DNA of 64,000 nt from the IMG/VR virus record IMGVR_UViG_3300029267_002727, positions 1-64,000 of that record; one strand, 5' to 3'. The DNA comes from a virus. Made by a program: the position numbers and the translations under genes. Within the stretch, counting starts at the first letter, position 1. Every line of letters starts with the position of its first letter. Positions 3,887 to 27,513 of this stretch are shown piece after piece. The notes below the pieces were generated by a model that did no database searches, had not been told where the DNA came from, and worked only from the letters and a program-made list of their open reading frames with translations.

Positions 3887-6800
3887 GCTTGATATACTGA
3901 ATCGGCGCTGCCGACCCCCTCGCGGATCCGTCTACCCCCATCCAATTTACGTTGATTGCCGTTGCCCAATCCCCCGTTCGGTCATAGAAATTAGTGAATC
4001 GGTCATTTGTCCATACGATGACATTGCGCTCTGGATTGACTGTAATGTTGTATAGTGTTCTCGTTGCCCAGGCGACCTCGTTGGCATTCTGGCGTGTAAA
4101 GATCGCGCGCCCTGACCCCATACCGGAATGCCCAAACACGGTGCCCGCTGCCGCCACGCTAGTCGTCCCAGTCCCAAGATACAAATCCCCGTCATTATGA
4201 TACAGCAACAAACCACCAAGTGCATCTACTCCATGTTCGCCGGTGCCGCCCCCGGTTGGCGTAACTACCAAGGAGGCCGGGTTATAGCCAGAGTAGATAT
4301 AGCCGTTCCATGTTTGTACAAACCCCTTGCATACAGCACGTACCACCTGCCCGTCACTATGTCCGCTACTCACCCAGTCTGTGTACGTACCCGCCGACCA
4401 TAACAGCCCGTCCGCGCACCCGCCTGCATAACAGCCAAACCTCGGCACGCCATCCTCTGCGTATGCGGCGTAGCCGCAGCCTGTATTCCTAACCGTGACA
4501 TTGCAGACGCTGGCGCTATATGCTGCAAACCTGGTGTAACTTAACCCCCCGGCTGTTCCAGAGAAGTAGCCACACAGCACATAATTGAAGTTTGCCCAGC
4601 CTATGTATACGGTGCCATCTGGTCCAATGTCCAGGGCCCCGAATGTGCCGCTCCCATCATCGCCCGTCGCTGCGGCGCGCCCGGCCGCCGTGCTCATGAT
4701 TTGCGTCCATCTAATTGGGCTTGCCTCTATATCTACTGTGTAGTACACACCGTCAGACGTTGTGCACCAGGCCTGCTGCGACGGCCCAAGTGCGATGCGA
4801 TAGAGGGTCCCGGACAGTCCGCTGCTAATGTTTTCCCAGTTCGCGTCCTCATCCACATCGAAGAAATTCGAGCTCCTGCCAACATACGTTTGGTCGTACA
4901 GAATCATGCCGTATTCGTGCTCTACGCCGGGCACCGGCCAGGGGATCGGATCCCATGATGGCCAATCATCGGCATCAGAGTAGCTGTATCCCACCAGGCC
5001 GAACTTTCCAGTCCACGCACCGATAAACTCGCTCTCTGGCGACAGGACGCCGTCTAACTCGCCATCTCCGCTGTCCCATGCCAGCGCGGTGTAGGTTATA
5101 CCGTCCGTGCTTGTGTAGACATAGATCATCCCGTAGTGCACACGAGCCCAAATGTAGTACCAATTTGACCCGTCGATGGTCCAGCCCATGGCGGCAGAGG
5201 CGGCCAGGGTTGTCTCTATGCCGCCAGCCATCTTTTTTAAGCGGATCACGTCGTCGTCTGCGTAGTAGGACGCGTGAAAGAAATTGTCCTTATCATAAAT
5301 GTGAAATGCTACACCGGCATACTCTTCTTTGTCGGTGTAGTTAAGCTGAAACCCGGTGCGCGCAGACCCACTGAGCGCATTAGACACAAACGTGCTCACA
5401 GCTAGGGCCTGCATATTCGCAGAAACGAGGTCGCACTCCCCACCGGATGCCTTCCAGGATCCCAGGTACGGCGCCGTGTGCCGCAGCCCCCCGTATCCCG
5501 TACCAGTAGGGTCATTATAGGCGTCACGGCCGGCTTGCTGCCCGGGCCATTCTGCTGCGAAGTCGGACCTGATACGATTGAGCCTGCTCAGTCTGTCGCT
5601 GGTGGCCAGCTTGAGTTGGCGCTGCGGCATTTGCAGTGTGTCCTGCCACTGTACCAGATCCTCGGTAGACGTCTGTACCTGCAATGCGGACCCAGAGTAG
5701 TACCCCAGATGATATACAGCCTCAACGCGGTCCTCTGTCTTGGCAAGCGTACCGCTTAGTACGTCTGCCGGATTGGAGAGCGCCACGCTCGTGTTACGAA
5801 TGTTAGCCGCGTTTGACTCAAGTCCAATGACGTAGTCAGTGACATCCGTTGCTGTCGGAGACTGGCCAGCCCACGTTGTCATGGGGCTGCGCTTCGTCTC
5901 ATTCACACCCACGACATACAAATAGTCGTTGTCACGTGGCAGGATCACACAGGGAGACGCCTCACCCTCGATAAACTCCGGGAACTCCCAGTTGTCGCCA
6001 TCCATTGATCTCATGACGGCGGTCTTTGTGTAAGTGTAATCCCCAGTGCCTCCCCGGCGCATGTACGTGCACCAGGCATAGCCTCCCTCAAATGAGAGCC
6101 TGAGATGCTGCCTGGATGGGTACACTTCGATATTGTCGATCACGTCCATGGCGTCATGGTCTGACCAGCGCCCCCCGGACTCCCAAAACCGGACGATGCC
6201 TTGTACTCTATTGACCACGGACGTTACTTGTGTTCCTACTGCCCTGGAGCTCAGGTACGGCGACATTTCTGCGGCAAACATGATCAGATCCTTGCCGCCC
6301 ACAGTTGCGGCATCCATGGCATAGATAGGGAATGGCCAATAGACGTCGCTGTCCGTATTGCTCCATGAGGCGCCAGAATACTCGTAGTAATGCAGTTTGT
6401 GGTTTGCGCTCGACGTCGAGGTGACGTAGTGTACCTTGGTGTGGGATGTCGCGGCGAGATGCTCGCAGTTTGTTGCGGCTCCGACATCGACCTCTGCCCC
6501 GAATACCGCGGGGGCTGCACCGATGCTGTCGCACTTTCTGTAACAGATTCTGTCGTTAGTATTGACGTAAAAGAGGTATACCTCACTCCCATTGGCAACA
6601 AGAGATGGCTTAACCTTATACTTGGCGCCCGTAAGCGTAATCGTCGCGGCTTGCCACGTGTAATCGGACCCAACTTCAGACTGTAATGTTTCCACGATAG
6701 TGCTAACGGTGGAATCCGAGACACAGGATACGTCAGCTTGCTCAGCACTGTACGCGCGTACAAGCCATGTAGACGCCTGGATGGCGTCAAACCAATCACC

Positions 6801-22365: not shown

Positions 22366-22740
22366 TTATCCCTCCACCAATTCGTTAGGGGGCCATTCCC
22401 CCTTCTTAATGTGCCAATCTCCCTCGTTTACCCCGTCTTCGTCGGCGTAGCCGCGCATCTTCCAATAATCGTTTGACCACCACACCATGCCCTTGTGGGT
22501 CGGCGTTCTCGATGCGTTGTCGTTGTAGTCTGTCACCTTGGCGGACGCGACCATGTAGAAATCTGGATTATCCGCCGATGTATCAAGGACATGAAATAAC
22601 CCGCTGCCAGGACCGAACCCAGCCAGGTCGGCTTCGTACATGATGTCAAACTGGGCCGATCGGCCATTCGCAACCCAAGCGGCATGAATGGTACTGTAAC
22701 CAACGTGATCCGAGTCGATCTTATAGCTGGCCATATCCAA
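22366..22740 (-). CDS. Hypothetical protein
   Basis: Tightly packed ORF in the operon; start uncertain. Confidence 0.55.
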   Translation of the reverse strand: MDMASYKIDSDHVGYSTIHAAWVANGRSAQFDIMYEADLAGFGPGSGLFHVLDTSADNPDFYMVASAKVTDYNDNASRTPTHKGMVWWSNDYWKMRGYADEDGVNEGDWHIKKGEWPPNELVEG

Positions 22741-23044
22741 GTACGGCTACGTTGTACCAGGCCTGGTAAATAGCCGCGTGCTCCCCCGTCATCTGATCGA
22801 CGGCGACCAGGTCCGCCTGGGCCTTGTCGCGCTCCCTCTTGGCGATCTGCGCCTCGGCCAACTTGGGCAAGACTTGGGCATTGTAACGCTTGAATGTCTC
22901 GGCGTCGATCTGGTCCGTACGCCGCAGTATCAGGAGGCGCCTTTTGCACGCCTCGAGTACCTGGGTGCGCTCATCACCCCTCCACTGAGGGAGACGCCTT
23001 ATCACAGTGTCAATATGCCCTAGTGTTCGGATGTTTGGGATCAT
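22721..23044 (-). CDS. Hypothetical helical protein
   Basis: ATGA-coupled to the upstream basic gene. Confidence 0.55.
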   Translation of the reverse strand: MIPNIRTLGHIDTVIRRLPQWRGDERTQVLEACKRRLLILRRTDQIDAETFKRYNAQVLPKLAEAQIAKRERDKAQADLVAVDQMTGEHAAIYQAWYNVAVLGYGQL

Positions 23045-23265
23045 TTCTTCTTTTTCCTAGTCACTGATCTCGCGGCCTTCGCATACGCCGCTTTCTTGCG
23101 AATGGCCTTGCTCTTACTGCGCCTTGCCTCGGCGATGCATTTAGCGGTCACGCCGCTGTAGCCCTTACTCTTTCAGTACCGAGTAAAAGACCCGACAGTG
23201 CCGCGCTTTTCCATGCTCTTGCGGGCACGCTGCATCCACTTCTTTTTGCCAGATGACTTGGCCAT
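23041..23265 (-). CDS. Small basic protein with in-frame UGA at codon 31 (candidate selenoprotein, 74 aa)
   Basis: MAKSSGKKKWMQRARKSMEKRGTVGSFTRY*KSKGYSGVTAKCIAEARRSKSKAIRKKAAYAKAARSVTRKKKK. RBS GGGGGAGGG; final TGA overlaps the next ATG; a hairpin follows the UGA. Confidence 0.6.
23143..23157 (-). promoter_or_regulatory. Candidate bacterial SECIS apical hairpin AGCGG-CGUGA-CCGCU
   Basis: Loop begins 20 nt after the UGA (23175-23173) and has GU at loop positions 2-3. Confidence 0.45.
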
Positions 23266-23277
23266 CCCTCCCCCTTA

Positions 23278-23335
23278 CAAACAGACGCCACCCTATGTGG
23301 GCGGCGTCGATACGCCAAATCTGTAATTCGGTTGT
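23278..23335 (-). promoter_or_regulatory. Repeated late leader element, copy 2 (ACAAC..AGATTTGGYGTAYCRACGCC hairpin)
   Basis: Homologous to 27289-27352. Confidence 0.6.
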
Positions 23336-24032: not shown

Positions 24033-24361
24033 TACGATCCCGCCTCCGATACCCGCGCCACGACATAGATCGTGCCGCTGGTGTACGCACTGACACGGGC
24101 CCTCATCACAGCCAGCCCGGCACAGTCCGCTCTATATAGTCCGGCAGCGGCGGTGGTTGTGGCTGCATTGCCGGTCGTCAGATTGGTCACCTTGATAGCC
24201 ACCCAGGTGCCGGTACTCAGCCTGGCCTCGAACGTGATTGTGCCGACGAATGTGCCCCAGACCTGAAACACGGCCGTGCTGTGGCCAGCAGTGCAAAGCT
24301 CCTTGCCATCGGCGGTTGCGGTAACCCCGTCCTGTAGCCTGCGATCCCTGTGTTCTCTCAT
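24032..24361 (-). CDS. Putative structural beta-sandwich protein
   Basis: GTFVGTITFEA...RARVSAYTSGTI pattern. Confidence 0.5.
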   Translation of the reverse strand: MREHRDRRLQDGVTATADGKELCTAGHSTAVFQVWGTFVGTITFEARLSTGTWVAIKVTNLTTGNAATTTAAAGLYRADCAGLAVMRARVSAYTSGTIYVVARVSEAGS

Positions 24362-25413
24362 ACTCTACCCTCCAGCATCTTCTGGTATGCAGCGCCCCAC
24401 CTGCGGTGCCCCGTCTTTATGTCTCGATTCTTGGTTACCCAGGCGAGGCCCTGCACGGCCAGTCTATGCCTCAATCTGTGATCGTCGATCAGCAGAGATA
24501 AGGCCTCGTACCACTCGCTGTTGTCAATTAAAAGTCCGTTGTGCTTGTTCTGCACGGTGCGACGATAAACCTTCACGTTGGTGCACGCTGGCACCGCTCC
24601 GCCCACCTTGCCGTTAGGTAAGCGCCTGGCTGCCGCCATAGCCTCCAGGGCCTTGATCGACGACTTTGACATGTTAAACCCATCCTCGGCATCCAGGCTA
24701 CAGCACACAATGTCGAATTGGCGCATCAACTGTGGGTACATAACGTATGGCACCGGATCGAGCTCGTGAAAGTTTGGCAATGAGCTCAAATAGTCCGGCG
24801 AGTACCCCGCCGCCAAGATGGTAATGTCTGGGTGCTCTCGAGCCAGCCTATGTAGTGCCCCCATCGGGAACTTCCAGTCAGCATAATGCGATGCGGTTCC
24901 AATGAACCCGATCGTGAGCCCTTTGTGCTGCCGTTCTGTATGATAGCTCTCGCCAGAGAACCACCCTACATCCACATGGTTCGGGAGCACGACAGGTCTG
25001 TGCTTCGTGTGCGCCTCCAGGCGGTCTCGTAGATACGGCGTACTAACGGTGACGTAATCTACATCGCGCAGGACGCCCTTGAAATCATCCCCACGCCCCA
25101 AGTCCCGGAAATCGTCCGTCAGGTCGTCGTCCGTGTCGAACACGACAATTCCACCATGCCGATGAAGAACGTCTATAAACTCGTGACGCCCGGCACGGCC
25201 GGCGAACAGCCTGGAAGTGAGATACAAGTCCCTCCCTAGAAGGTCGTTAGAACGCCCCTCTTCCACGATCGCTCGGATCTCTTTTTGTCCCAGGATCTCG
25301 ATCTTGTGCCTGGGGTCTTTGGCAAGGTGCTGTAAGGGTGATACCGCTCGGTAGTAATTGATCGCCGATATGCCGGTAACCTCAGAATGGCGCACAAACG
25401 CCATGGCGCGCAT
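24358..25413 (-). CDS. Glycosyltransferase (GT-B/GT4-like) in the head module
   Basis: YYR..P, VVFDTDDDL, VTVSTPYL, VLPN, IGFIG..SH, KS.IKALE motifs. Confidence 0.85.
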   Translation of the reverse strand: MRAMAFVRHSEVTGISAINYYRAVSPLQHLAKDPRHKIEILGQKEIRAIVEEGRSNDLLGRDLYLTSRLFAGRAGRHEFIDVLHRHGGIVVFDTDDDLTDDFRDLGRGDDFKGVLRDVDYVTVSTPYLRDRLEAHTKHRPVVLPNHVDVGWFSGESYHTERQHKGLTIGFIGTASHYADWKFPMGALHRLAREHPDITILAAGYSPDYLSSLPNFHELDPVPYVMYPQLMRQFDIVCCSLDAEDGFNMSKSSIKALEAMAAARRLPNGKVGGAVPACTNVKVYRRTVQNKHNGLLIDNSEWYEALSLLIDDHRLRHRLAVQGLAWVTKNRDIKTGHRRWGAAYQKMLEGRV

Positions 25414-25429
25414 CACGCCCTCCTTTTGT

Positions 25430-25771
25430 TTACGTGCCGCACAAATAGATGTAGACAGTTGTGTCAACGCTCGCCTGGAGCGAGAACGACGTGATACTCG
25501 TGCCGATCATCAACCACGCATCTGTGAATGACCACGACTCCGGCGAGAGCTCCTTGAACAACTGGACCGTGGCTGCATTCCCAGACACCTTGATGTAAAT
25601 GTACTGGATGGTACTCATTTGTACCTTGATTTCAGTCTTGGTGCCGGCCGTCAAGGATACAGACGGCAGGATCTGCTCCTCGTCATAACTGCGCCTGATG
25701 AAGCGGTCCTCTGCGTCAGCTAGTTGCAGGCCGTTGTTTCTGCGCTTGATTTCCAGTCTGGTTTCCAGCAT
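25430..25771 (-). CDS. Hypothetical (likely structural) protein
   Basis: ORF with GGAGGG RBS overlapping the portal end. Confidence 0.55.
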   Translation of the reverse strand: MLETRLEIKRRNNGLQLADAEDRFIRRSYDEEQILPSVSLTAGTKTEIKVQMSTIQYIYIKVSGNAATVQLFKELSPESWSFTDAWLMIGTSITSFSLQASVDTTVYIYLCGT

Positions 25772-27278
25772 TTACCCCTCCAGGCGGGACGGCCTTAGCC
25801 TTGGCCTCCGCCTCTGTATCCATCTGTTCCTTCATCCAGTCCAGGATGCGCTGTCGCTCACCCTCAACATCCTCGATCCCCATCGCTTTCAGATAGCCCT
25901 CGATACTGATACCGAATTGTCCCAGGCGCTCGATCATCTCGCGGTGGCGAACCTCCTGATCTAGCGGGATCATCTCTGGCCAGCGCTGCATTATCTTTGT
26001 GGTCATGATCTGCCTGGGCGTGATCTCAGGAACGGGAAACTCGACGCTATCCCTCTTGGATACAATGAGTCGCAGTGCAGCCTTATCCGCCGAGGTCTTG
26101 GCGTCTGCAAAGTTGGAGCGGGCCGTAACGGCGTGAGCGATAGATGTCCACATGCGCTGTGCGATCGCTGGCCCTGTGATGCGCCCCGAAGATGTATCAT
26201 CTAGGCCAAATACGGCAGGACTGATCCGGGACACCATCATCCAGAAGTCTAGCAGTGTCTTGGGGAACCGGGAGAGCTCCTCGGGGAGATCTGGCGTGGG
26301 CATCTCCTTCGCCTCCGGCTTGACTGAGCCGCCCTGCATCGCTCGCGAGTTCCCCAGGTCCACAATACGCAGAACGACCTGGCCGTCAGCCGTGACCTTA
26401 CGCATGCTGGGGTTTCTGGTGATGTCGGTCCCCAGCAATACACCAGGTAGGGACTTGCGCACTACGTCCGCCAGGTCCGCTGTCCGTGCGTTTACCTCTT
26501 CCACAAGCTCGGTCTGCCCCTCGACCAGGCTGTCCCCCCACAATTCCTTTGTGGTACGTTCGTGCGGAATATAGAAGATCGGCACAAAGCCGAGCGGGTT
26601 CTCGCCGGCCAACGTCCAGGCATCGTCCCCGATCTTCATCTTCACAACTCTGTCATTCACGGTGATCCGGTATTCGGAGTCAGTCCAGTGCTCCATGTAG
26701 AGGGCCGTTGGCGACGCCACCTCGATACCGTACTTGGCCATGGCGTCCTCGGCCGAGATCTCGTACCCGACATAGCACTCGAGCAGTTTCCATGGATTGA
26801 GCCAGTCGGCGCGGGGCATGATGTGGCCGGGATTCTTGATTAGCCGTATGGCCGTGCCATACGGGAGCTCTATCTCCCACGGCTCCCAGGAGACTTTTAG
26901 CACGGTGCCGCCGTAGATCATCATAGACAGAAGCGCCTCCTGCTGGAGGGGGCCTCCGTGACTTGGGCGCCACACACCCTCGTTGATAAGGTTCTCTAGG
27001 GCCTCGGCGTTCTCGGTTCCTCGGTCCACGACTGATTGCACAAAGAGCGGGTCGTCTTGGTCGGGCATCCCCCTAACCAGGTCCCGGTGCACGGTGCAGG
27101 CCAATTCCACAAGGTTGATGTCAAGCGGAAACTTTCTGACCTTTTCGCCCGTTTCACGATCCCGTGTAGGCATGGTGCCATCGAGCTTGGTTCCGTCGAA
27201 CCATTGCTCGTACTGCTGATATTTCAGGCGCCGGGATTGCCACTCCGTGCTTTCCCAAATATCGCGGTCTCGTGCCAT
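25716..27278 (-). CDS. Portal protein
   Basis: ~520 aa after the terminase; GENPLGFVPIFYIPH...WGDS motif (SPP1 gp6-like); ATG at 27278 after GGGAGG. Confidence 0.85.
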   Translation of the reverse strand: MARDRDIWESTEWQSRRLKYQQYEQWFDGTKLDGTMPTRDRETGEKVRKFPLDINLVELACTVHRDLVRGMPDQDDPLFVQSVVDRGTENAEALENLINEGVWRPSHGGPLQQEALLSMMIYGGTVLKVSWEPWEIELPYGTAIRLIKNPGHIMPRADWLNPWKLLECYVGYEISAEDAMAKYGIEVASPTALYMEHWTDSEYRITVNDRVVKMKIGDDAWTLAGENPLGFVPIFYIPHERTTKELWGDSLVEGQTELVEEVNARTADLADVVRKSLPGVLLGTDITRNPSMRKVTADGQVVLRIVDLGNSRAMQGGSVKPEAKEMPTPDLPEELSRFPKTLLDFWMMVSRISPAVFGLDDTSSGRITGPAIAQRMWTSIAHAVTARSNFADAKTSADKAALRLIVSKRDSVEFPVPEITPRQIMTTKIMQRWPEMIPLDQEVRHREMIERLGQFGISIEGYLKAMGIEDVEGERQRILDWMKEQMDTEAEAKAKAVPPGGVNAGNQTGNQAQKQRPATS

Positions 27279-27288
27279 AGGCCTCCCG

Positions 27289-27323
27289 AAAAAGAAAAAC
27301 GCCACCTCGATTGAGGTGGCGTT
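27289..27323 (-). terminator. Intrinsic terminator directly upstream of the portal gene
   Basis: AACGCCACCTC-AATC-GAGGTGGCGTT followed by TTTCTTTTT. Confidence 0.75.
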
Positions 27324-27352
27324 GGTACACCAAATCTTGGGGTTTCTGTTGT

Positions 27353-27513
27353 ACAAGTGAGTATGGGGCGTGCCCCCTGGGAGCCAGTTATTCCCCGGCT
27401 GGGGCTCCTCCGCGCATCGCGGCGGCAGCGCATGGGATGCCTGTTACGGAGTGCCGGGCCAGATGCTGCCTGCACAGGGGCACATTGGCAGCCCACGCCC
27501 CATACTCACTTGT
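27353..27513 (-). ncRNA. Candidate structured ncRNA closed by a perfect 20-bp stem
   Basis: ACAAGTGAGTATGGGGCGTG (27353-27372) and its exact complement (27494-27513); internal hairpins; intergenic. Confidence 0.55.

Follow-up and report, generated by a model that had tools for sequence, protein, structure and literature searches.

Introduction

The prototype of the bacterial selenoprotein gene is fdhF of Escherichia coli, which carries within its open reading frame a SECIS element that is read by SelB. Such an element is a stem-loop located immediately 3' of the UGA codon that recruits domain 4 of SelB, and in E. coli about 40% of the ribosomes insert selenocysteine (Sec) while about 60% terminate at the Sec UGA (PMC7026636). 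One criterion by which a selenoprotein is recognized is a UGA codon aligned to Cys in at least two Cys-containing homologues (PMC1976440). For viruses, a review of recoding names only two selenoproteins, both from poxviruses, namely a GPx1-like protein of molluscum contagiosum and a GPx4-like protein of fowlpox, the SECIS of the latter being located in the coding region (PMC8310308). A phage-encoded selenoprotein was not found in the literature, and the papers describing BSepDB and deep-Sep make no mention of phages.

The stretch of DNA analyzed here, referred to as the window, comprises 64,000 nucleotides (positions 1 to 64,000 of IMG/VR record IMGVR_UViG_3300029267_002727) and belongs to an uncultured phage with a genome of approximately 98 kb. 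It contains a small gene that resembles the bacterial SelB/SECIS genes in having a UGA at a Cys site, followed within the coding sequence by a stem-loop whose small loop contains G and U at a distance of approximately 18-20 nt. Decoding of this UGA would likewise need selA, selB, selC and selD, which are present in the genome bin to which the phage contig was assigned. Unlike the bacterial examples, the gene is phage-borne and not accompanied by Sec machinery of its own, the stem consists of just 5-6 bp, and the product would be a small basic protein of the head or packaging module and not a redox enzyme. The poxvirus genes share with this locus the proposed use of host Sec machinery for the decoding of a virus gene. 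However, they are captured cellular glutathione peroxidases that employ eukaryotic SECIS elements, whereas the phage protein belongs to a phage-specific family and its putative SECIS is of the bacterial type.

Layout of the candidate gene

A previous sequence-only reading of the window had described a 74-codon frame with a good ribosome binding site (RBS), a TGA at codon 31, a Cys 12 residues downstream, an ATGA overlap with the next gene and a hairpin with its loop 20 nt past the UGA and GU at loop positions 2-3. All of these features were found, on the minus strand (Table 1). The TGA at codon 31 is the only internal one of the frame and its context is FTRY-UGA-KSKGYSGVTAKCI. Judged from the translation and an AlphaFold2 model, the product would be very basic, consist of four helices and contain the pair U31-x11-C43. 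The 107-aa gene that follows is probably translationally coupled to the candidate gene; Pfam and PHROGs family searches yielded no match for it. The hairpin upstream of the RBS is terminator-like by appearance and its function is putative.

Genome-wide recoding of TGA, which the same reading had excluded, was rejected because TGA is a normal stop in this phage: it is the commonest stop codon of the long ORFs (61 of 127) and also terminates the candidate gene. SECIS-like hairpins were seen 3' of 15 further TGA triplets of the phage, none of them in a convincing split ORF. The phage genome contains neither a tRNA nor a Sec gene, so that insertion of Sec would depend on a Sec-using host.

Table 1. 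Positions of the candidate gene, its signals and neighbors in the window, and of related features in other sequences
Feature	Position	Strand	Description
Candidate selenoprotein gene	23265..23041	minus	74 codons plus stop; ATG 23265..23263; product begins MAK
In-frame UGA, proposed Sec codon 31	23175..23173	minus	aligned to the family Cys
Codon 43 TGC, partner Cys	23139..23137	minus	12 residues past the UGA, giving U-x11-C
Purine-rich RBS AAGGGGGAGGG	23276..23266	minus	abuts the ATG; read from the sequence
SECIS-like hairpin AGCGG-CGUGA-CCGCU	23157..23143	minus	arms 23157..23153 and 23147..23143, loop 23152..23148
In-frame GTG	23151		36-aa ORF
Downstream 107-aa gene	22721..23044	minus	ATG overlaps the terminal TGA (23043..23041) as ATGA
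Terminator-like hairpin	23284..23308	minus	10 bp, GC-rich, then TGTTTGT; consensus scan; between the stop of the upstream gene and the RBS of the candidate gene
Glycosyltransferase gene	24358-25467	minus	phrog_7162; Glyco_trans_1_4 below the Pfam cut-off
Putative portal gene	25716-27356
L054 hairpin			(C)GGCGG-CGUGA-CCGCU(G)
L055 hairpin			(U)GGUGG-CGUGA-CCACC(G)
L026 hairpin			(C)GGUGG-AGUUA-CCACU(G)
L044 hairpin			UUC-U-CUGG-CGUGA-CCAG-U-GAA
L052 segment	9861-9926		weak 3-bp version of the hairpin
L053 segment	3065-3130	minus	GGCUUU-UCA-AAAGUC from 9 nt past the UGA
MAG FdhA gene	G000:C74:12500-14518	minus	single in-frame TGA, CARL-U-HSVTVTGL
L068 homologue (BK013346.1)	4843-5070		stand-alone Cys form

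A phage protein family with a conserved Cys pair

The three closest full-length homologues of the read-through protein (58-73% identity) have Cys at the UGA site as well as at position 43. A profile search detected 1065 representative clusters at E <= 1e-3, whose members are either stand-alone proteins of approximately 60-130 residues or domains in proteins of up to 1378 residues. Among the 157 domain instances in the best 150 hits of these 1065 clusters, the first Cys, which corresponds to the UGA site, is present in 156 and both Cys residues are present in 154; two instances lack the second Cys only and one has Ala at both positions. The UGA thus coincides with a residue that ranks among the most conserved in the family. 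Loss of the Cys pair was also recorded for individual sequences: both residues are Ala in L038-L040 and P0024, and the second Cys alone is missing in L036/L041, P0012 and P0019. Among the members examined, none was seen that lacks only the first Cys.

At the DNA level, 58 distinct forms with a TGY codon at the first position were available for comparison. On the basis of the sequences, this is a large, phage-only family defined by a C-x11-C or C-x7-C domain. Searches of Pfam and PHROGs with the candidate protein were empty and the Atlas search returned unnamed viral clusters only, while the fused relatives and the window neighbors were almost devoid of Pfam or PHROGs matches. Relatives of the protein were not detected in the collection of genome contigs, and two DNA-pattern matches in such contigs (L056 and L057) were rejected as chance matches. 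One stand-alone Cys-form homologue (L068) was noted in a virus of hot-spring origin (Aquificae Joseph's Coat Spring virus), where it is flanked by genes for thymidylate synthase and ribonucleotide reductase and not by a head module.

Recurrence of the UGA codon at the first Cys position

Sequences with TGA at the first Cys position were sought among tblastn-confirmed loci of IMG/VR and JGI metagenomes and by a degenerate DNA pattern scan. Six more distinct phage sequences were found to have TGA precisely at this codon (L026/L051, L044/L045, L052, L053, L054 and L055). They originate from different samples and share about 38-73% identity with the window protein, in the halves upstream and downstream of the TGA. 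Past the TGA, 38-43 conserved codons remain open, the second Cys is kept and the frame ends at another ordinary stop codon. Downstream identity of the TGA forms to their nearest relative amounts to 53-82%, with similar values upstream. Five of the seven TGA forms have a Cys form as their nearest relative in the set (68-78% identity), which points to several interchanges of Sec and Cys. The group of seven is small and some of its members are related, L054 being syntenic with the window.

In IMG/VR, matched patterns directed at the first Cys retrieved five TGA forms and 50 TGY forms, and a second, independent pattern recovered the same five. The presumed Sec forms are a minority of about 9% of the pattern-matching IMG/VR members and are scattered among the Cys forms. 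The IMG/VR pattern scan found TGA zero times at the second Cys codon, which is just as mutable, and the pattern search did not detect TGA in the short-loop C-x7-C subfamily. The restriction of TGA to the first Cys would not be expected from random nonsense changes or from sequencing errors. Sequencing error would also be insufficient to account for the pattern because six other lineages share the TGA.

A hairpin that accompanies the UGA

In the window, the stem of the SECIS-like hairpin starts 15 nt past the UGA. It has 5 bp and a local folding energy of -6.1 kcal/mol and is part of the minimum free energy fold. The regional fold is no more stable than those of shuffled sequences (z-score -0.19), so that the hairpin alone is unremarkable and its significance derives from the comparative data. 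Among TGA triplets, just 0.6% of those of the phage and 0.5% of those of host contigs are followed by a hairpin of the same class. An Rfam search gave no match.

A hairpin with a 5-nt NGUNA loop is shared by five of the seven TGA forms. It occupies the identical position, over the codons [S/G]-G-V-T-[A/T/S], and shows compensatory changes (Table 1). Analysis of this helix across all seven TGA forms revealed 83.3% paired cells compared to 68.8% after shuffling, a value reached by none of 500 shuffles, and a covariation of 0.46 compared to 0.21, reached by two of 500. In three pairs both partners differ, with exchanges such as C-G to U-A and G-C to C-G. In 16 Cys forms, the same helix is paired in 57.3% of the cells, which is below the shuffled mean, and covariation is absent (498 of 500 shuffles reach the observed value).

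The stability of the hairpin separates the two groups of sequences as well. Four of the seven TGA forms but none of the 58 distinct Cys forms have a hairpin at or below -6 kcal/mol (Fisher p = 5e-5, Mann-Whitney p = 3e-4), and the best hairpin among these Cys forms reaches -2.3 kcal/mol. This difference is not an effect of GC content, as segments with GC >= 0.5 reach the threshold of -6 kcal/mol in 4/4 TGA forms and in 0/22 Cys forms. Synonymous encodings that are as stable as the observed sequence make up 1.3-4.1% in each of five lineages, the window being at 1.3%.

A stem-loop 3' of the UGA with a small G(U)-containing loop at a SelB-compatible distance is thus found in the window and in four other TGA forms, and it is not found in L052 and L053. 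The weak version in L052 is common to a Cys relative, and the hairpin of L053, which has S-K-V-T at the corresponding codons, has no G in its loop. Both are lower-GC sequences and may contain another, host-specific SECIS variant, or they may reflect decay or a defect.

Selenocysteine machinery in the genome bin

Contig C13 (105.7 kb), which includes the window, was assigned to a 6.58-Mb metagenome-assembled genome (MAG) that is 96.9% complete with 7.6% contamination. This MAG contains a tRNA-Sec(UCA) scoring 71.9 bits, which was confirmed by ARAGORN, together with selB (329 bits), selA (562 bits) and selD (380 bits), each above the cut-off. It also encodes an FdhA with a single in-frame TGA, which is followed by GUGACC-GGUCU-GGUCAC with a 5-nt loop starting at 18 nt and GU at loop positions 2-3. 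The FdhA SECIS is of the same design as the phage hairpin. A scan of the MAG for more selenoproteins was too noisy in this GC-rich genome to be informative and only FdhA stood out. Of 48 genomes from the family to which the MAG belongs, 43 contain selA.

Contig C13 wraps around a genome of approximately 97.6 kb: positions 1-89 of the window correspond to C13 97505-97593, and the last 8.15 kb of the contig (C13 97594-105743) are a diverged copy of the first 8 kb with 73-94% identity in patches. As read from these overlaps, the phage genome is circular or concatemeric and two strain variants of one region were joined in the assembly. The wrap-around indicates a free phage genome that was placed in the MAG by binning. 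The GC content is 58.8% for C13 and 62.7% for the MAG, and a comparison of C13 to the remaining contigs of the MAG detected no spacer-like matches. A distant portal homologue (28% identity) is present in one of 47 genomes of the same family and is missing from all 97 genomes that represent other families of this order; in the same-family genome with this homologue the small gene is absent.

Protein structure, gene context and relationship to crAss001 gp45

AlphaFold2 modeling with a 64-sequence alignment predicted helices at residues 6-21, 26-34, 41-48 and 53-73 with a mean pLDDT of 78.6 and a core of about 90. In this model, helix 2 packs on helix 3, with U31 close to where helix 2 ends and C43 where helix 3 begins. 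The helix-loop-helix geometry, together with the joint loss of both Cys residues and the existence of the shorter-loop C-x7-C variant, suggests that residues 31 and 43 touch. Most likely the two residues would act together, either as a selenylsulfide or disulfide or as ligands of a shared metal. A Foldseek search of the PDB for a solved fold, such as the SAP/HTH-like helix-loop-helix folds of DNA-binding proteins, yielded nothing at E <= 0.001, and a wide VIA search gave a best Z of 4.7 and no informative fold. In BFVD, Foldseek matched a crAss-like protein with 41% identity over 49 columns.

The gene is recurrently located close to the terminase and portal genes. The order is TerL-portal-gene in L052 and TerL-gene-portal in L053, while in L022 and L026 the gene directly precedes TerL and portal. 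The window has it between a putative portal gene and putative scaffold and capsid genes, three assignments that were made by the sequence-only reading and have no family match, and L054 shows the same synteny. The glycosyltransferase gene listed in Table 1 is situated between the putative portal gene and the candidate gene, and this position is also occupied in L054.

A link to a characterized virion protein was provided by tblastn with the family member P0043, which matched gp45 of Bacteroides phage crAss001 (E = 7e-6), whereas the same comparison of P0001 to GenBank phages retrieved nothing. Residues 381-423 (approximate boundaries) of gp45 (L067, MH675552.1) form a short-loop version of the domain, KFTAYCGGKVTEACI...RKRATFAQNARNW, and the translation shares the core F-T-x-[WY]-C ... 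V-T-x-x-C-I ... R-K-[RK]-A-x-F-A. The gp45 protein was identified as the virion cargo protein C1 of crAss001 by mass spectrometry and cryo-EM; its residues 425-552 bind the portal wing, residues 214-245 are located in the tail barrel, and its ejection is assumed to precede that of the DNA (PMC10172136). The domain stretch lies just before the portal-bound domain and is absent from the cryo-EM maps (PMC10172136). Approximately 30 genomes of Bacteroides crAss-like phages carry the domain, annotated as 'putative transmembrane protein'. Although the domain is the same, gp45 is a multidomain protein of 842 residues with Cys, whereas the window protein is a stand-alone candidate virion protein of 74 residues. 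One fused relative of the family starts with a 'virion structural protein' PHROG. Based on the terminase and portal context, the domain in gp45 and this fused relative, the best inference is that the stand-alone protein is packaged in a portal- or DNA-proximal position. The sequence-only reading had proposed a virion protein that may condense DNA; the presence of the same domain in gp45 lends some support to the virion part of this idea.

Interpretation of the in-frame UGA

The data make it probable that the gene encodes a phage selenoprotein in which UGA31 is decoded as Sec by means of host SelB. This proposal had been made by the sequence-only reading together with the checks that could be applied to it, and it is supported by their outcome. 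The homologues have Cys at the UGA in all but one of the counted domain instances, which also covers the alignment to Cys homologues asked for in the field (PMC1976440). Related phages provided six further TGA forms, four of them with the shared hairpin, and the covariation of this hairpin is specific to the TGA forms. Of the host genes selABCD, the tRNA-Sec, selA, selB and selD were located in the MAG, the phage being linked to it by binning only. On sequence evidence, the criteria of the field would class this as a new family of selenoproteins.

If a Cys codon had been turned into TGA by a nonsense mutation, or by an error of sequencing or assembly, the gene would be a pseudogene; a single third-position change from TGY to TGA would suffice. 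Such an event is nevertheless very improbable, as seven distinct sequences of different sample origin have TGA at this codon and none has it at the second Cys, the downstream frame shows no decay, and the hairpin goes with the TGA and is missing from the 58 Cys forms. Another rival reading is intended termination at UGA31, with a basic peptide of 30 residues as the product and a C-terminal half that is either made from an internal start or not made at all. An in-frame GTG is indeed available (Table 1), and the short peptide will exist anyway if, as in E. coli, ~60% of the ribosomes stop at a Sec UGA (PMC7026636). However, conservation of the internal start does not extend to the other TGA forms, all other occurrences of the domain are undivided, and helix 2 with U31 is packed against helix 3 with C43 in the AlphaFold2 model, so that we consider this explanation to be extremely improbable.

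Ordinary read-through by a near-cognate tRNA for Trp or Cys, or a leaky attenuator, would require the hairpin to be a generic signal for read-through or pausing. The conservation downstream of the UGA requires full-length translation but does not fix the identity of the inserted residue, and both the short stem and the two TGA forms without a canonical hairpin would be compatible with such a signal. Yet Trp is unlikely to be tolerated at a position that is Cys in 156/157 relatives, and the loop is of the SelB type, with GU at positions 2-3 about 20 nt from the UGA, and matches the FdhA SECIS of the bin. Read-through at a low level would moreover starve a structural gene of its product. Taken together, this explanation appears unlikely.

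If UGA31 is indeed decoded as Sec, the ternary complex of host SelB, GTP and Sec-tRNA(Sec) would bind the in-ORF stem-loop of 5-6 bp with its 5-nt NGUNA loop and deliver Sec at the UGA. There, Sec would take the place of the first Cys in the nearly invariant pair, the two residues being located on neighboring helices. Failure of Sec insertion would release the 30-residue peptide and probably reduce translation of the coupled downstream gene, because the start of this gene overlaps the stop of the candidate gene; the output could in this way become selenium-dependent. As a tentative scenario, phages of Sec-using and probably anaerobic bacteria may have repeatedly changed the first Cys to Sec in a packaged head- or cargo-type protein. 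A selenylsulfide or Se-metal site could hold or switch under reducing, sulfidic conditions in a way that a disulfide does not, and the coupled UGA could tie expression of the head module to the selenium status of the host.

Implications

At present, gene callers either split genes of the Sec form or omit them. Where it can be recognized, the Sec form would flag a Sec-using host and may in this way assist host prediction. The existence of Sec and Cys versions within 70-80% identity in a protein of only 70 residues offers a tractable test of the contribution of selenium. The findings also draw attention to a widespread uncharacterized domain (1065 clusters) that is shared with crAss001 gp45. If the proposed decoding is true, the use of selenocysteine extends to viruses of bacteria, which would exploit the SelB/SECIS pathway of their hosts.
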